Assembly: GCA_024679065.1 (NCBI GenBank)
Contig: JAGIQG010000040.1
Coordinates: forward strand, 8,680,001 to 8,744,000
DNA from: Sphyrna mokarran
Lineage: Eukaryota
Direction: 5' to 3'
Length of the DNA stretch: 64,000 nucleotides
Part shown: positions 11,675 to 42,569 of the stretch, one piece after another
How the letters are laid out: each line of letters starts with the position of its first letter
Position numbering within the stretch: the first letter of the stretch is position 1
The notes under the pieces: model-generated
Seen by the model: only the letters and a program-made list of their open reading frames with translations
Told to the model about the DNA's origin: nothing
Database searches by the model: none
Made by a program: the position numbers and the translations under genes

Positions 11675-12603
11675 AGCAGAATTAGGCCACTCGGCCCATC
11701 GAGTCCGCTCCGCCATTCCATCATGGCTGATATTTTACTCATCCCCCATTCTCCTGCCTTTTACCCGTAACCCAGATCCCCTTATAAATCAAGAACCTAT
11801 CTATCTCTGTCTTAAAGACACTCAATGACCTGGCCCTCCACAGCTTTCTACAGCAAAGAGTTCCACACATTTCCAACTCTCTGGCTGAAGGAATTCCTTC
11901 TCATCTCTTTTTTAAAGGACCATTCCTTTAGCCTGAGATTGTGCCCTTTAGTTCTAGTTTTTCTTACTAGTGGAAACATATTCTCCATGTCCACTCCATC
12001 CGGGCCTCACAGTATCGTGTAAGTTTCAGTGAGATCTCCTCTCATCCTTGTAACCACAACAAGTACAGACCCAGAGTCCTCAACCTGTTCCTTATATTTA
12101 AGCTCTTCATTCCAGGAATCATTCTTGTGAACCTCCTCAGGACCCTTTCCAAGACTGGCACATCCTAATCTCTCAGTTCACACATGCCTGTCGATCGCAG
12201 GATCAGCGCAGACGGAAAATAGACAATGGTTGATTGGTTTACTTGCCGATTTTACTATCACCCGCTACCTTTCTTACAGCCCCAAAGTCCCTCTGCAGCA
12301 ACGACTATCAAACACAGCTCTGAACCACTAGTTGCGATGGAGACAAAAGGATTAGGAACAGCAGTAAGCCATCTGGCCCCCCGATCCTGCCCTGCCATCC
12401 AATAAGATCATGGCTAATAATTTTTAATGGACTCAGTTTCACTTACCCGCCCGCTCACCATAATCCTTAATTACATTACTTTTCAAAAATCTATCTATCC
12501 TTGCCTTAAAAAAAATCAATGAGGTAGCCTCAACGACTTCACTGGGCTGGGAATTCCACATGTTCGCAACCCTTTGTGAAGAAGTTCGTCCTCGACTCAG
12601 TCC
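11675..12603 (-). mobile_element. Two CR1 3' fragments
   Basis: Antisense ORF2 ends (SQRVANMWNS...) with CR1 3' UTRs at about 11680 and 12350. Confidence 0.75.
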
Positions 12604-13378
12604 TAAGCTTTTTCCTAGGATGGACTCGAATAGCACGAGGGGTCACGGCCTCAGGGTGAGGGGGGTAAGGTATAATTTGGATGCTAGAGGGAGTTTTTTC
12701 ACACAGAGGGTGGTGGGCGTATGGAATGCACTGCCCAGTAAAGTGGTGGAGGCAGGTACTCTGGAGTTATTTAAGAAATACTTAGATGGGCACATGAACA
12801 GAATGGGAATGGAGGGGTATAGAAAACTGATTTAAAGTAGGGATCATGAGCCTTGGGAGTCCCTGGGAAGTGTGTAAATAGACGACGATATTCATGTACT
12901 TGTTTTTATCCTACAGGTGCTTTGGTCCACCTTGTTGTCTAACAAGGGGCATACACGCGATGGGTCATGAGAGGACTGCTCTTGAATCTTTTTCGAGAGT
13001 ACCCTAGTGCTTCACATTGTTAGTGTATGCTTGACCTGGACCGTCTGATGGGCAACACGACAGCTCAGTGACTATCGCTGTGCTGTGCAGATACATGGAT
13101 TTGGGCCTGTGTCGGTGGGAGTTTGCTCATTCTCCCCGTGCTTGCGTGGGTTTTCTCCAGGAGCTCCGGTTTCCTCCCACATCCTAAAGATGTGCTCTTA
13201 GGTTAATTGGCAAAATAAATTCTCCCTAAATTGTCTCAAATTTGGTTTTTAATCCATAGATCTATAAACATGGACAGGGGTCGTGGGTAGAGGTGGGAAC
13301 ATCGGGGTGGCGGCGTGGGCTCGTTGGGCCGAAGGGCCTGTTTCCCATGCTGTTTTGTTCTTTGTTCTTTGTCCTTTG
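12604..13378 (+). mobile_element. Long-3'UTR CR1, copy A
   Basis: ORF2 end (TRGHGLRVRG...FFTQRVVGVWNALP...RKLI*), a ~540-nt 3' UTR and a (TTCTTTG)n tail. Near-identical to copies C and D. Confidence 0.88.
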
Positions 13379-13659
13379 GTCTGGCGGCAACTCTAAGGAG
13401 ACAAAAGAGCTAACGTTTCGGGTCCAGACGACCCTTTGTCAAAACTGAGATTTTCGGAAATACGGCTCTAGGGGTTGGGAGGTGATTCAGCATGTTAAGG
13501 GATTGGAGGATGTTACATAGATAGGGAGGGGGTGTAGGGACTGAAGCAGGTTACAGAGGTCTGGAGGGATGTAAAAGGCTGCAGATGGTTACAGAGATAG
13601 GGAGGGTGTGTTGGAGCTGGAGGAGGTTACAGACATAGGGAAAGGTAAGGGTAAGGGTT

Positions 13660-14110
13660 ACCACCTAACCTGCACATTTTTGGACACTAAAGTCAATTTA
13701 GCATGGTCAATCAACCTAACCTGCACATCTTTAGACATTAAGCGACAATTTATCATGGCAAATCCATCCAACCTGTATATTGTTGGACAAGAAGTGGAAA
13801 TTTACCATGGCCAATGCACCTAACCTGCATGTCTTTGGGTATTAAGGGGCAGTTTAGCATGACCAATCCATTTAACCTACATATCTTCGGACACAATTGG
13901 ATAATTTTGCAGAGCCAATCCACCTAACCTGCACATATTTAGACACTGATGGGCAAGTTAGATGGCCACTGCATCTAACATGCACATCTTTGGACACTAA
14001 GGGACAATTTAGCATGATCAATCCATCTAATCTACACATCTTTGGACAATGGGAGGAATCCAGAGCACCTGGAGGAAATCCACGCAGACATGGATAGAGC
14101 ATGTAAACGT
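13660..14110 (-). repeat. 52-bp tandem array of a V-SINE segment running into the SINE body
   Basis: About 8 units of ggacactaaggggcaatttagcatggccaatccacctaacctgcacatcttt. Confidence 0.85.
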
Positions 14111-14179
14111 CACACAGACAATAACCCGGGGGTTTTCATTATTATTTTCCCACTCTGAAATTTCTCACTCTGCGTTCAA

Positions 14180-14480
14180 CACAGTGAAACAGTGGTTAGC
14201 ACTGCTGCCTCACAATGCCATGAATTTGGATCTGATTCCTGTCATGGGTCACTGCCTGTGCGGAGTTTGTACATTTCCCCCATATCAGTGTAGGCTTCCT
14301 CCAAGTGCTCCAGTTTCCTCCCACAGTCTGAAATGTATGTTGGTTAGGTGCATTAGTGATGCTAAATTCACCCTTAGTGTACCCGAATGGGCACAGGAAT
14401 GTGGTTACTGGGGGATTTTCACTGTAACTTCATTGAATTGTTGATGTACGTCTACCTGTGGCATGAATAAATAAATTAAT
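14180..14480 (+). mobile_element. HE1-like V-SINE
   Basis: agtggttagcactgctgcctcaca head, V-domain, (aata)n tail. Confidence 0.75.
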
Positions 14481-16055: not shown

Positions 16056-17725
16056 GCAAGAACAAAGAGCAACACAGCACAGGAAACAGGCCCTTCAGCC
16101 CAACGAGCCCGCACCGCCGTCCTAACGTCTTAATGACATATCCATGAATTTAGGCTATGCCTATTGTGGAAGATTCCCATATAGGGACCAATATAGGGAC
16201 AATTTGTTACCCAATCAGCCTAAGACCACATTTTTGGGATGTGGGAGCACCCGGAGAAAACCCACACAACCACGGGGAGAACGCGCAAACTCCCGCAGAC
16301 ACAGGCCCAAATCTATGTGTCTGCACAGCAACAGCGATAATCTCTGAGCTGTCACGTTGCCCATCAGATGGTCCAGTTTAAGCATACACTAACGACTTGA
16401 AGCACTAGGCCACTCCTGAAGCAACATCCAAGAGCAGCCCTCGCACGACCTGCCGAATGCATGCACCTTGTTGGTCAACAAGGTGGACCGAATTGCCTGT
16501 GGAAACAAATAAGATATTTAGACAGTCCTGCTATATCCCTCTATCTGCAAACCGCTCATGTGGCTGTCCAAGAGAGCCTTAAACAACCCTAGCGTGCCTG
16601 CTCCCACCACCTTACTCGGCAGTGCATTCCACACCCCCACTACCCTTTGTGTGAAAAACTGCCCTCTAATATTCGTCTTATACATAGCCCCCTCACCCTA
16701 AGGCCGTGACCCCTCGTTCTATCCATTTCTAATGGTGGAAAAAGCTTACCACCATTTACTCTATCTATACCCCTTATAATCTTATATACCTCTAATAGAT
16801 CCCCTCTCAGCCGACGTCTTTCAAGGGAAAACAACCCCAGTGTGTTCAATCTTTCCTCGTAAGACAGCCCTTCCATACCAGGCAGCATCCTGGTAAATCT
16901 CCTCTGCACTCTCTCCAAGGCCTCCACATCCTTCCGGTAGTACGGCGACCAGAACTGGACGCAGTACTCCAAGTGAGGCCTAACCAACGTTCTAAACACT
17001 TGCAACATCAGACTCCTACTCTCGTATTCTATGCCCCTTCCTATGAAGGCTAACATACCATACGCTTTCTTTATCACATTCTCCACCTGTACTAACATCT
17101 TCAGAGACTTGTAAACCTGCACCCCCAGGTCTCTCTGCGTCTCTATACTCCGGATAGTTTTACCTTTTATCCTATAACTCCCCTCTACATTATTCTGGTC
17201 AAAATGCATCACCTCGCATTTATCCAGATTAAATTCCATTTGCCATCTATCTGCCCAATCTACCAGCCTATCTATGTCCTGTTGTATTGCCTGGCACTGC
17301 TCCTCAGTACCCGTCAATCCAAGCATCTTAGTGTCATCAGCAAATTTGCTGATTACACCACCTACCCCCTCTTCCAAGTCATTTATATAAACCACAAATA
17401 GAAGAGGTCCTAGTACTGAGCCCTGTGGCACACCACTAGTGACAGACCTCCTGTTGGAAAAAGAGCCTTCCACTACTACCCGCTGTCTCCTCCTCCCAAG
17501 CCAGTTCTCAACCCATCTACATACCTGGCCCTGTATCCCATGCGCCTTAACCTTTTCTATCAGCCTATCATGAGGAACCTTGTCAAACGCCTTACTGAAA
17601 TCCATGTAGACGACATCAACGGCTTGTCCTTCATCAACCGTTTTTGTCACCTCTTCAAAAAATTCCACTAGATTCGTAAGGCGCGAGCTCCCCTTAACGA
17701 AGCCATGCTGCGTATCCCTGATCAG
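16056..17725 (-). mobile_element. Long-3'UTR CR1, copy B (diverged subfamily), in the GPCR intron
   Basis: RT frame in ORF 16640-17797 (QHGFVKG, YMDFSKAFD, FADD), and a 3' UTR homologous to copy A. It splits an older LINE (LDTIQ...|IHSLHHRR..VCAIYKMHC, about 15940-16055 and 17726-18115). Confidence 0.9.
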
Positions 17726-21029: not shown

Positions 21030-21330
21030 AATGTTTATTTGTTAATACCACAAATAGGCTTATATTAACAATGCAATGAATTTACTGTGAAAACCCCGTA
21101 TTAGCCACACTCCAGCACCTGTTCGGGTACACTGAGGGAGAATTTAGCATGGCCAATGCAATCTAACCAGTACATCCTTTGGGCTGCAGATGGAAACCGG
21201 AGCTCCCGGAGGAAACCCACACAGACACGGGGAGAATGTGCAAACTCGTCAGAGACAGTGACCCAAACCAGAATCGAACCCAGGTCCCTGTGAGGCAGCA
21301 ATTCTTGCCGCTGTGCCACACCAGCAACAC
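21030..21330 (-). mobile_element. HE1-like V-SINE
   Basis: A/B boxes (gtggcacagcgg..ggttcgattc), V-domain and tail. Confidence 0.8.
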
Positions 21331-22935: not shown

Positions 22936-23573
22936 TCGTCGTCTTTCATTTAAAGGGCTAATGTTCAGTTAAGAGGTAAAGTTCAGTTGAGAGTTTATGA
23001 GTTGTAATGAATTTCATCAGGCAGTTGAGGTTAGCCCGCTGGACGGAGTAGTTCAGGGGTGGCTTTCCATACACACCGCCTCCCTTTCCACCCCTGCCAA
23101 CCTCAACTCGGCCGAACATCTGTAAGGTGTAACTCTCGTACTTAATTACAGGCATAGGACAGCCCCCACCCCCATCTCCGGCTAGCATTGGAAATAACCT
23201 GGGAGGGGATGCCCTGGAAAGCTGCAGATAATCGATAATCTTTATCCCCAGCGTAATGGAATCGTTTGTTATATTATTGCGTGAAATTAATTGCTGTTCT
23301 TCCTGAGAACAACAGTAGAGTTCCCACATCTTTAAGAAAGGGGATTTTATTTGAAGACGCTGCTACGGTTAATTGCTTAAATGTCCAGCACCATTCAAGA
23401 CTGCATGTGGCAGAACTGTGATGTTAGATCCTACCTGTAAAAATTCGGATCAGAGTGATTGTGCAATATATACATTGACATGTATTTGTGCAATATTAAT
23501 TTAAACAATGTGTTATAATTCATTATAATCATAGACAGGACCCATTCTAACATACGTACATATGAACAGAATG

Positions 23574-37720: not shown

Positions 37721-37963
37721 TTAAATCCTCCAGCAGGCAAGGAGAATGTCATAAATGTTCAAAAAAAAGTAATTATTTTCACCAATGACTGTTCATTCAC
37801 AATGTAATAAATGCATTCACCTGCTCTCATTCATTCATAAAGATTAGTATATTTAACATTACTTTATGGAAGGTGGTTTGGAAGGTGGGCTTTGTCTAGG
37901 CCAGCATTCATTCCCCATTGCTAATTGCATTCAGTAAATTGGTGATGAGCCATCTTGTTGAAT

Positions 37964-39819
37964 CATAGAACATAGAACATTACAGCACAGAACAGGCCCT
38001 TCGGCCTTCGATGTTGCGCCGACCAATATAAAAAGCAATGACCCTCCAAACTAAACCATTCCCTTCTCTTCCATATACTTATCAACTAACCTCTTAAACG
38101 CCACCAAACTTGGCGCATCTAAACTGCCGCAGGAAGGGCATTCCACTCCCTAACCACCCTTTGGGTAAAGAACCTACCTCTGATATCCGTCCTATAACTA
38201 TCACCCCTTAATTTAAAGCTGTGTCCCCTCGTGCTAGCTTTCTCCACCCTAGGAAAAAGGTTATCACTGTCCAGTAGGATTATGGTAGAAGATAGAAACA
38301 CAGTAAACACATTCATTTCAGTTTGGTTTCTTTTTCATATGTCACATTTATGATGACTGAGGGGGATAATTTTTGAGAGATTGGTTCAAGTACAAGTGCT
38401 GCCCATGAAGTATCAGTTGTGTTGTAAATTGTCCTTTTCTATCTCATGAATGAGACAGAGAATTTTTGTTGGAGAGCTTAGTTCCCCCAAGTGTTATAGA
38501 CTCTGCTCTGATGCTAGCGTTGAATGTCTTACTGAGATTCATGAATGTATGTGTATTCAAAGGTCTTTCCCGTGATGCTATGATTGAGATACATCTACAG
38601 ATGTTGCTGTCTTCTCTGTTGGTCTTGTCTTCGGATAATGTGATGCTTTTGAATCACGAATCTCCTGTGGAACGGAATCTATCTTCTGGCAGAGAAAGAA
38701 TGTAAATGTTCAGAAAGTTGGTATTTATTTTCACCAATTGCCATCCATTGGCAAATGTGTTCACATCCATTTACAAACATCAATGCATTTAAGTTTTAAC
38801 TTAAGGGATAGGAACGTTGCTGGCTAAGTCAGCATTTGTTGCTTACCCCTAATTGCCCTTAGTAAGCTGGTGCCTTACTACCTTGTTGAATTGCTGCAGG
38901 TCCTGTTGTGTAGGTACCATACAAAGTTGTTACAGAGGGAGTTCTAGGTTTTCGATCCAGCGGCAGTGACAGAAAGATGATATGTGTCCACATCAGGTAT
39001 ATGACTGACTTAGAGGGTAATTTATAGACGATATTCTCTGATAACTATTCCCCCTGTCCTTGCAAATGGCAACCCACTGTATGGCTGCCTCAGGAGTCTT
39101 GGTGAGTTTCGGAAAAGCAAGTTGTAGATGGTACATAATGCTGCTCTCTGGGGTGGACGGAGTGAACATTTGCAAATGTTATGCCAGTCAAGCATAACAT
39201 GCTTGTTATGCTTTGTGATGCTTTGTTATGTTGCTTTGTCTTGAATGATATGGAGTATCTTGAATGTTGTGTGAGCTGTGCTTATTCAAGCAAGTGGAGA
39301 GAACCATTTTTGTCTCCTAATATGTGTCCTGCAGGTGGTGCACACTGTTTGGGGAGTCAGGAGGTGAGTTACTCACAACAGGCTGACCTGATATTCCAGC
39401 CGGAGCATGTATATATCTAGCTAACATAGCGATTAGCCAATGGCAACCTCGAAGATATTGATAATGGTTGATTCATTGTCGTAATATAATTGAGTGTCAA
39501 GGGATAATGGTCAGATTCTCCATTTTTGGAGATGGTCATGGCCTGGCGCCAATATTACTAATGATCTTCCATTTACAAAAAAACAAAATTAATATTTCAT
39601 CAATTATCGTCAGTATTTTATTTTGATTCAAACTTAATTGCAGTTTATTTAATATCATTTATTGAGACTCAGATGTATTGAGATCATATTGCCCTTTCTG
39701 TCACCAAAGAATCAAACCTGTTCCAGAATTCAGCGGAAAATGGAATTAAATCAGGCCAAATAGTAGTAATTACCCAGCAGCCTCTGCACTTTATTGGCAA
39801 GGAATCACCTCATCATCAG
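37964..39819 (+). repeat. Recent segmental duplication, copy 2
   Basis: Matches 27046-29193 minus the extra CR1; begins with a minus-strand CR1 3' end (37964-38273). Confidence 0.93.
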
Positions 39820-42569
39820 AAACTATTCCATGGCACAGGCAAGAGTCCAGAGATAACCACTCTTCCAGTTTTGGCCCTAAGCTTCCACCCCAACTCCTGG
39901 ACCAATTTATAGAATCAGAGAGAAAAACTACAACTACCGGCAAGCCTCCTAATGACGACTTCCGGTTTCCAGTTAGTTTAAATAAAAGCGGCAAAAACTA
40001 CCACCACTCGCTACTTTAACCAAAAAGTTAAAAATTACTTAACACTCGAACTTTACGCTCTCCCAAATCGCTGCCTCTCCGTGCTGCTCCAAGGGAACAA
40101 CTACACAGTTAATTTAGGTGAGGGCATATTGAGTGATTTGTTGTGCGTGGAAGAACCACATGTTTTAAATATTACAAACTTCTCTACTTAAACTAATCAT
40201 CTTGACTCTTTTTACCTTTCATATGAAGATTCAGCATAAAGTGTGAAATGAACCCGTCCGAGCTGCAGTAGTGTTTCATTTTTTTTTTCTCTTCGTGAGG
40301 AACAGTTATTGCTAACTCCCAATAATCTCGGAATGGATTTCACCAAGGCACTCTGAAAGAGTTCGAGGTATTAGACGGACAGAAGTGGAATAAAGGACCT
40401 GATTCAATCTAAGAAATAATCAAGCGCAAATATTGATATGTAGAACACCATTTTTCAATTCCATTTATCACTGTTTCCATCAATCTATTCACTGTTTCTT
40501 CAATCGAAATAGTCAGGCATTAATCTGGCATTCATCCAAACATCATTTCTTCCAAGGTCATTCATTCCTGCATCAAAACAGTAATACATTTATTGTTTGC
40601 GTAGATTGTGACATAACATTAATTTGATTAATCCAATGATCCAGAGGCCCAGGATAATGATGTGAGGACAGAGATGTAAATCTGGCCATGGCAGCTGGTA
40701 GAATTTGAATTCAACTAACAAAATAGAATAAAGGATACAAGGAATAGGTACAAGCATGTGTCTCCAGGCAGACAACAATATAAATGACTTTTTATAATAT
40801 CTTCACATGTGGCCAAGAGAATCAGACAGTTCAAGGGAATTTGGGACAAGCAAACAATGCTCGCTTTTCCAACCAAACAGCCCATGGAAAGGTAAAGGAA
40901 AAGAAGCATAATCTTCATGTGCCATCTGTCTGAGCCATCTCTCAATTTTCCTGTAATTCTTTCTATCCATCCATCACAATATCCTGATGTACTGGGAAAA
41001 TCATCATTGCTGCTAACAGGATGCCAGAGAAGCTGCAAGACTTTCTTTTTTTTCGAGATGGGAAAATTCATCTAGATTTATATCTTTAAAATACTAGAGT
41101 GTCTCCAATACTGTTGCTAGGTAGATTTGTTTATAAATAGGTGTCATTGACAACCTGAAGAGTTTTAGGTTGGCTTGCAGCCAAGCAGTCAATGTTGAGG
41201 AAACAGATTTTTGATCTACTGCACAAATACCGCCAGATGTTTCCTATCAATAACTTTGAGCATTTGACAGCAGCCTGGATTGCTGCCAAATATTGTGTGG
41301 GACAGATTAGCGTGAATCTGAATGGACAAAACACGATTCAGACATTTTAACAGTAAATGTTTCATTCCCACAAGAAAGACACGTTTTAAATCGTAATCAT
41401 TCTAATGAAATACTTTCACTCGATATCCTGTTCAATGTGTGAGTAAATAGTATGAAAAACAATAAAGTGAACAGATGTTTTTTTTTCATTTGTATAACTT
41501 CAAAATAAATGCTATTTCAATAATTAAAGTCTGTTTCTTCACCAAGTCATGAAATGCGAGCGCGAGAGAGATGCTGTTGGTCTCAATTCTCCAGTCAATT
41601 GAGATCAGAGTAATGGCAAAAATGCGTCAAAATAATGTTAAAATCTCATCATAAAACTGACAGGAACAGCGGGGATTCCTGAAATGTTCTGAAAATTCTG
41701 TATCTCATTTAAACAGCAATGTCTCTTGTACCTGATTTGCACTGTGTTCCATTGCACAGTATAATCTGATTTCTGTTATTGAAGAGTTCCTCTCATAGTT
41801 GCCAATGAGTGGAGAAATGATCAGTTCATAACCTGATTCAATGGAAGATAAAATATTTATTCTTGATATATTGTACAATATGCTGCAAATCCTCATGTCC
41901 TGTGTTCCCAACATCGGCGAATGTTAGGCAGCGGGCGGCCAATGCTGAAGAACTTTAACGATCTTCGCGTCCATTCCGATTCATTAACTTTTCTGTCAAA
42001 AGTCAATTTAATTTTACATTTATCTGTCAACTCACTATTGAATTATCAGCAGGGCGGGAGTCCTATTATTTTCAAAGAACTGCCTTCGAGGTTGGGGAAG
42101 CTTGACAAATATAAGGAGAAACATTGTATTGTGTGTGAGTTTCTTCACATCTCCAAACGCAATTTGTACGGTGATAGCCATCCACACTGCAAATCGAATC
42201 ACTTCGTTCATCCCCCGCATTTAGTTACAGAAATTGACAAGATTTTTTTTCTTATAAATTATGCTTTATCATTGTTAAGTGACAGAGGCCCGGAATTGCT
42301 GCAAAATAGACTGACGGTCTGTTTATTTTCCGAAAATGTTATTTCATCGTTTTTAGATTTGTGTTCTTGTTAGGAGCGTGGTAATAAAACACATATTTAC
42401 AGCAGATTTTATTTTTAAAATAAGAAATGGTGAACTGCAATATCACTATCAACAATAATAGAGACAGTACAATGAACGGATTCAGAGAAACCAAAATCCC
42501 GACTCAGATAAAATGTCAATTTCAATATTAACCTATTGTAAATCTCGGAGTCCATTGGGGGTGTGGAGG

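Follow-up and report, generated by a model that had tools for sequence, protein, structure and literature searches.

Sharks and rays host a described pair of partner retrotransposons, the V-SINE HE1 and the CR1-like LINE HER1 (available part of PMC3747384). V-SINEs at large are known from cnidarians to vertebrates, molluscs and insects included (available parts of PMC4824008 and PMC5804259), and the conservation of SINE central domains over hundreds of millions of years has been called a major enigma in the accessible text of the latter paper, which also argues that LINEs have yielded no domain of this kind. Likewise, the accessible part of a Repbase-wide comparison (PMC5786205) reports no LINE bearing a V-domain, and a search of the open literature, with subscription papers, Repbase Reports and Dfam beyond its scope, retrieved no report of one. 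At the locus examined here, in a 64,000-nucleotide stretch of DNA (the window), the head and V-domain of such a SINE lie at a fixed position inside a LINE, in tens of thousands of co-propagated copies throughout the genome. The explanation that we favour, and hold to be rather probable, is that a V-SINE head and body became fixed in the 3' untranslated region (UTR) of a CR1 lineage, likely through one capture, that the Pol III boxes are gone, and that the head/V fold is likely selected for copying of the LINE RNA.

An embedded V-SINE module in a CR1 lineage

The initial annotation had placed a SINE body at 13050-13230 of the window, within a LINE 3' UTR; the sequence there is as described, and the four window copies align across this interval. 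In each of them the ORF2 stop codon is followed by a spacer with a pyrimidine tract and CAG, a folded domain of about 133 nt, the head, the V-domain, the post-V body, a second spacer and the terminal stem-loop with its (TTCTTTG)n repeats (Table 1). The identical position first ascribed to the module holds relative to the upstream acceptor and fold (123-134 nt) but not relative to the stop codon, the stop-to-acceptor distance ranging from 19 to 159 nt. At its 5' end, the copy at 12604 meets head to head with a piece of another CR1 family that lies on the minus strand (window 12340-12603). Elsewhere in the window, a 1.5-kb duplicate with 98.6% identity begins at a CR1 tail (27052-28571 and 37964-39482) and may be a young repeat or a local duplication.

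Table 1. Positions of the module, of its further copies and of the free V-SINEs used as comparators (window coordinates unless a locus is named).
Feature	Position	Strand	Remarks
CR1 ORF2 3' end, 5'-truncated copy, subfamily A	12604-12835	+	stop codon 12833-12835; frame from subfamily consensus
Spacer with terminal pyrimidine tract and CAG (splice acceptor)	12836-12916	+	AG at 12915-12916
Folded RNA domain, closing stem GGTCCA...TGGACC	12917-13049	+	predicted fold
Remodelled tRNA-derived SINE head	13050-13117	+	A box altered; 18-nt deletion removes B box; head plus V 13050-13181
V-domain core, 64 nt	13118-13181	+	match to published V_HCD consensus
Post-V SINE body	13182-13228	+	24-33% different from free SINE consensus
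Fast-evolving spacer	13229-13308	+	19/65-27/68 mismatches between deep subfamilies
CR1 terminal stem-loop and (TTCTTTG)n repeats	13309-13378	+	stem-loop 13309-13353
Second copy, subfamily A	62034-63025	+	head 62710-62777, V 62778-62841; head plus V 62710-62841
Third copy, subfamily A	23573-24200	+	head 23878-23945, V 23946-24009; head plus V 23878-24009; ~47-nt insertion at acceptor
Fourth copy, subfamily B	16058-17725	-	head 16294-16362, V 16240-16293 with 10-nt V deletion; head plus V 16240-16362
Free V-SINE comparator, L2-type tail	21034-21314	-	
Free V-SINE comparator, L2-type tail	14189-14475	+	
Free V-SINE comparator, L2-type tail	37425-37711	+	
Free V-SINE comparator, L2-type tail	63183-63445	+	
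Free V-SINE comparator, CR1-type (HE1-like) tail	51074-51324	-	
Likely spliced retrocopy, both ORFs removed	L286:1471-1974 (G000:C882 near 134822100)	+	~504 nt

We take the carrier to be a CR1 element, likely that of a shark in view of its motifs and of HE1/HER1; the CR1 label is assigned from the C-terminal part of ORF2 and from tail motifs, with a tree that holds host-genome copies only; the CR1 traits of a 3' stem-loop, a short tandem repeat end and frequent 5' truncation are present in the lineage. One copy (L244) has an uninterrupted ORF2 frame of 1014 codons from stop to stop, with APE endonuclease (PF03372/PF14529) and reverse transcriptase (PF00078) domains, while L245 and L246, in which ORF1 is present, are almost complete, with 4322 nt between 5' end and head. 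The 303-codon ORF1 of L245 matches OSK (1.9e-6) and Lipase_GDSL_2 (2e-4, below that profile's cut-off); an SGNH/esterase-like domain is typical of CR1 ORF1. At another locus (L041:2655-3211), a variant LINE 5' end of about 180 nt, lacking the first donor site, is repeated three times in tandem and is perhaps the promoter of another subfamily.

When the genome was searched with ORF2 alone, 30 loci of subfamily A and 30 of subfamily B were retrieved (best matches, window copies counted in); head and V are found where expected in 26 of the A loci and in all 30 of the B loci. Counting one A locus where they lie behind an insertion of about 850 nt, 57 of the 60 loci carry them; of the three others, two have identical sequence and break off inside the fold, and one stops at a contig end. 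Furthermore, exact 14-mers counted genome-wide matched 29,857 times (fold) and 39,798 times (B-box-deleted head/V junction), controls giving 12 and 3, and the ratio between the first two is explained by ordinary 5' truncation. The module is common to five subfamily consensuses (A, B, D, E and F, built from 15-26 copies each) and to a B variant. The proposal that the SINE part belongs to the LINE and spreads with it is thus borne out by these loci, by some 30,000-40,000 exact motif matches and by at least five subfamilies, and the SINE part is neither absent from nor variably placed in most of the copies retrieved. This genome is densely populated by both kinds of repeat, as separate SINE insertions into dead LINE copies would require, but such chance nesting, to which we give practically no credence, is refuted by an identical position and an identical 18-nt deletion at 57 of 60 loci and by about 40,000 motif matches. 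The module also occurs in contigs from runs with other organism labels, among which X6 extends from the ORF2 stop across the fold into the beginning of the head, and in X16 a loose end displays the B-box-deleted junction.

Regarding the SINE identity of the piece, 55 of 64 positions of the window V core agree, counted by eye, with the published V_HCD consensus (available part of the PMC6887750 supplement), and window 13100-13227 aligns with the free SINE at 21135-21267 with 77% identity (E 1.5e-17). The LINE UTR can be aligned with a consensus built from 64 free V-SINE copies, from the first base of the latter through the post-V stretch, and the V consensuses of the LINE subfamilies differ from this consensus at 3-7 of 64 positions. 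The heads share 24-28 identical positions over 42-44 columns, a score reached by 0-9 of 2000 shuffles. Compared with the free SINE, the LINE head has an altered A box and has lost 18 nt spanning the B box; no A- or B-box regular expression matches any of the five subfamily consensuses, in line with the earlier remark that no intact B box is left, and ARAGORN returned 0 tRNAs. The V-domain is indeed shared with free HE1-like SINEs, copies of which are present in the host genome, but most free SINEs of the window carry an L2-type tail and not the CR1-type one. Free V-SINEs with nearly alike head and V bear both tails, a tail exchange inside one genome. On the minus strand of window 13661-14127, a free V-SINE leads into an array of about eight ~51-nt post-V units in tandem, a SINE-derived minisatellite.

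A released SINE beginning at the head was also considered and rejected, being found neither among the listed copies nor among 11 untargeted ones: 5' ends are not concentrated at the head (one copy, L142, among those listed; 0 of the 11), and therefore no released SINE family is recognized. The embedded piece is derived from a V-SINE without being a V-SINE member, as it has no Pol III boxes and is not copied alone.

Direction of transfer

In a tree built from the final 620 nt of ORF2, a single branch sets the 12 V-bearing rows apart amid 27 short-UTR rows. The branch has a support of 71/98, not starred, and is present in 66% of bootstrap trees; the 39 rows, all host-genome copies, were kept from 275 sequences in 46 clusters, singletons judged chimeric or redundant being left out. 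The mean distance from consensus amounts to 18.6% for free SINE copies (n=64) and to 0.4-5.6% for the sampled LINE copies, which are best matches and biased low. Because the head is homologous to that of free V-SINEs, the lineage is nested in short-UTR CR1s and V-SINEs are far older, we read the direction, on these sequence grounds, as SINE into LINE, a reversal of the usual LINE-to-SINE flow. A single capture from a free SINE appears likely. Of the two origins initially put forward, a LINE that captured a SINE and kept it is therefore the supported one, the fixed position speaking for it as well. The other origin has this UTR as the source of the V-domain, free V-SINEs having taken a head-less V from the LINE, and LINE UTRs are known to be the source of some SINE bodies, such as those of RTE and Vingi (available part of PMC5786205). 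We nevertheless regard it as largely refuted already and highly improbable: the UTR holds, in register with V, a tRNA-derived head that has decayed and has its B box cut out, the V lineage sits amid short-UTR CR1s, the free SINE copies are older than the sampled LINE copies on the distances given above, and V-SINEs extend from vertebrates to cnidarians, molluscs and insects in the portions of the papers already cited.

The capture could have occurred by insertion of a SINE into the CR1 3' UTR or by a template switch of the reverse transcriptase. The tail, which looks like the LINE's own, is identical to short-UTR LINE tails at 29-35 of 45 positions and to the free SINE tail at 29 of 45, its 3' half being closer, by eye, to the LINE tails. 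A donor SINE subfamily combining a LINE-type V with an intact B box was sought among 150 matches and none was found; about 12 of the 100 listed had LINE-type letters and the rest look like ordinary-SINE single mutants. In the region of L245:9738, a short-UTR CR1 ends in (TTCTTTG)n as in the V-bearing lineage and is a candidate sister lineage.

Constraint, RNA fold and splice acceptor

The comparison of substitution rates suggested with the initial annotation was run on a nucleotide alignment of consensuses and showed V to be strongly conserved with respect to flanking sequence. Subfamilies A and B differ at 2/64 positions of V, 4/68 of the head and 0/45 of the tail, against 31/88 four-fold ORF2 sites (Fisher p 6e-7 for V versus four-fold sites) and 25/67 positions of the V-to-tail spacer. 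Over seven deep subfamily pairs, which are not independent and represent about three deep lineages (A, E and B/D/F), four-fold ORF2 sites differ by 31-39%, the spacer by 29-40% and ORF2 codon positions 1+2 by 8-14%, while V differs at 2-5/64, the head at 4-9/68-69 and the tail at 0-2/45 positions, V and head being slower than, or equal to, codon positions 1+2. Hence, V, head and tail evolve far more slowly than four-fold ORF2 sites and the spacer.

Scrutiny of the predicted RNA structures gave z values of -2.1 to -4.9 across five consensuses for the domain at 12917-13049, with 47 predicted pairs of which 3 show double changes, 12 single changes and 10 a broken cell; one hairpin arm of this domain is lost in subfamily D. 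Rfam returned no match on 12700-13450 beyond two chance ones (E 1.2 and 9.4), and a reading as an HDV-like ribozyme was weighed by eye and dropped. Head and V together are predicted to form a four-way structure (z -1.8 to -4.8), the outer stem of which pairs the 5' end of the head with V; V alone folds no better than shuffles (z ~0). From free SINE to LINE, three clean double changes (pairs 6-114, 11-39 and 13-37) keep stems, one of them linking head to V, and the hairpin that carried the B box is shortened and rebuilt relative to the free consensus. Some head pairs are broken in subfamily D. By eye, the frog V-SINEs in the published material available show the same head/V pairing, with one covarying pair.

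We infer that head and V function as a cis-acting RNA structure. The fold would bind a host or LINE factor and, once bound, would raise the stability of the LINE RNA or RNP assembly, resulting in more copying and a benefit in cis. V is not needed for CR1 activity, because short-UTR CR1 families thrive too, being also abundant and young (63 copies at a mean distance of 0.065; 5 copies at 0.017). This success of CR1s without the module would suit a captured SINE piece that is a jobless passenger, its likeness among subfamilies stemming from conversion by free SINEs or from 3' modules that co-active subfamilies have lately exchanged; moreover, SINE module exchange by template switching is established (available part of PMC4824008), and one copy, L073, joins a B-like ORF2 end to an F-type UTR. 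However, fast spacers interleave with the conserved blocks and part V from the tail, which disfavours a wholesale UTR exchange, and LINE heads differ from each other at 1-9/69 positions but lie 32-39% away from free SINE heads, so that free SINEs cannot be the converting donor. Given also the compensatory pairs, we consider the passenger explanation unlikely.

The acceptor motif is found in five of five subfamily consensuses while the preceding spacer shrinks from 159 to 19 nt, and a donor-like site lies after nt 46 of the B 5' UTR, present in L245, L246 and L260 and absent in L091 and in the L041-type 5' end. Placed before the module, this acceptor could let a Pol II transcript splice to an ORF-less RNA of about 0.5 kb. 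Among 11 matches to a B exon-start pattern without the acceptor, one (L286) has the junction predicted from the nt-46 donor. There, a 46-nt LINE 5' end, 100% identical to that of L245, runs straight into the acceptor with an exact GT..AG junction, and the sequence beyond it comprises fold, head, V and tail and agrees with subfamily B at 423/433 positions; the deletion is bounded exactly by GT and AG, and both the LINE 5' end and the repeat tail are present. A plain deletion is unlikely because the microhomology at the joint is only 2 nt. A clear target-site duplication was looked for at L286 and none was seen. This copy is likely a spliced, ORF-less retrocopy, and with it a single subfamily B copy suggests that the acceptor works. 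As for the other B candidates, L289 is an ORF2-internal deletion at CAG microhomology without GT, one is an acceptor variant, and the rest are truncations or unrelated. Additional GTAAG donor-like sites occur shortly 5' of ORF1 at L245:4500-4860 (minus strand) and near position 2900 of L142, and also in an unrelated CR1 family.

An exact genome-wide pattern open to all subfamilies retrieved L286 as the only spliced copy, so either an ORF-less RNA with the module is not an efficient trans-substrate or the spliced RNA is rare. For subfamily A, none of 30 out of 123 candidates examined had shared upstream sequence, and in contigs from RNA runs none of the 15 joints listed (of 36) falls at the acceptor, the V core lying outside the covered part. 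The selected unit might be the spliced non-coding RNA itself, a Pol II 'internal SINE' limiting LINE activity or competing for ORF2p or a host factor. The acceptor retained next to a shrinking spacer, the exact GT-AG copy and the donor of three LINE copies are in keeping with such a unit, whereas the single copy, the A-type candidates, the 5' ends without a donor and the RNA joints stand against it, and we give it a rather low probability, slightly above that of a jobless passenger. Returning to a fold selected for LINE copying, splicing is probably an attenuating side route rather than the main copying mode, and the spliced RNA is likely to be copied rarely, as cis preference would predict. 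A broader and more tentative possibility, somewhat doubtful in our eyes, is that the V-domain is a Pol III-independent RNA retrotransposition module acting with the tRNA-head fold, which a shark CR1 lineage domesticated from its own parasite and placed behind a conserved acceptor, and which switches between coding RNA and a SINE-like RNA of about 0.5 kb.

Significance and relation to known systems

Here, an autonomous LINE that was active recently and has no Pol III promoter contains a SINE central domain as a fixed component that evolves slowly. A conserved V in such a context points to an RNA-level job for the element itself, rather than to transcription or to the host, and the question of SINE-domain conservation becomes testable by a standard cell-culture retrotransposition assay. 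If V were a Pol III-independent module, this would be the first autonomous element allowing a SINE highly conserved domain to be assayed in cis. As regards annotation, tens of thousands of apparent V-SINE matches in such genomes are LINE tails.

Nothing closer than the following systems appears in the available parts of PMC5499810, PMC11481361, PMC13295347 and PMC6036668. Each comparison draws on the accessible portion of the source. As in SpIREs, spliced L1 retrocopies in which splicing lowers activity (PMC5860796), L286 would be a retrocopy of a spliced LINE RNA, but SpIREs splice within the 5' UTR/ORF1 whereas L286 loses both ORFs via a 3' UTR acceptor kept across subfamilies. LINE-derived SINE bodies and bipartite non-autonomous LINEs (PMC5786205) share with our element the common use of a SINE body and a LINE UTR, and L286 has their 5'+3' bipartite layout; the direction is nevertheless opposite here (SINE to LINE), and the bipartite copy, a single one, would arise by splicing. 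In the MER6/MER6A MITE (PMC6887750), an Ac1-like V-SINE that has no working promoter was likewise taken up by a different transposon and multiplied along with it. MER6 is, however, a non-autonomous DNA element without the head, while the present carrier is an RNA-copied autonomous LINE with a remodelled head, whose slow evolution is measurable across subfamilies. Finally, HE1/HER1 (PMC3747384) resembles our system in its tRNA head, V-domain and CR1-type tail and in a partner of the CR1 clade; compared with that pair, the lineage reported here carries head and V inside the autonomous LINE, has lost the Pol III boxes and has an additional acceptor and fold.
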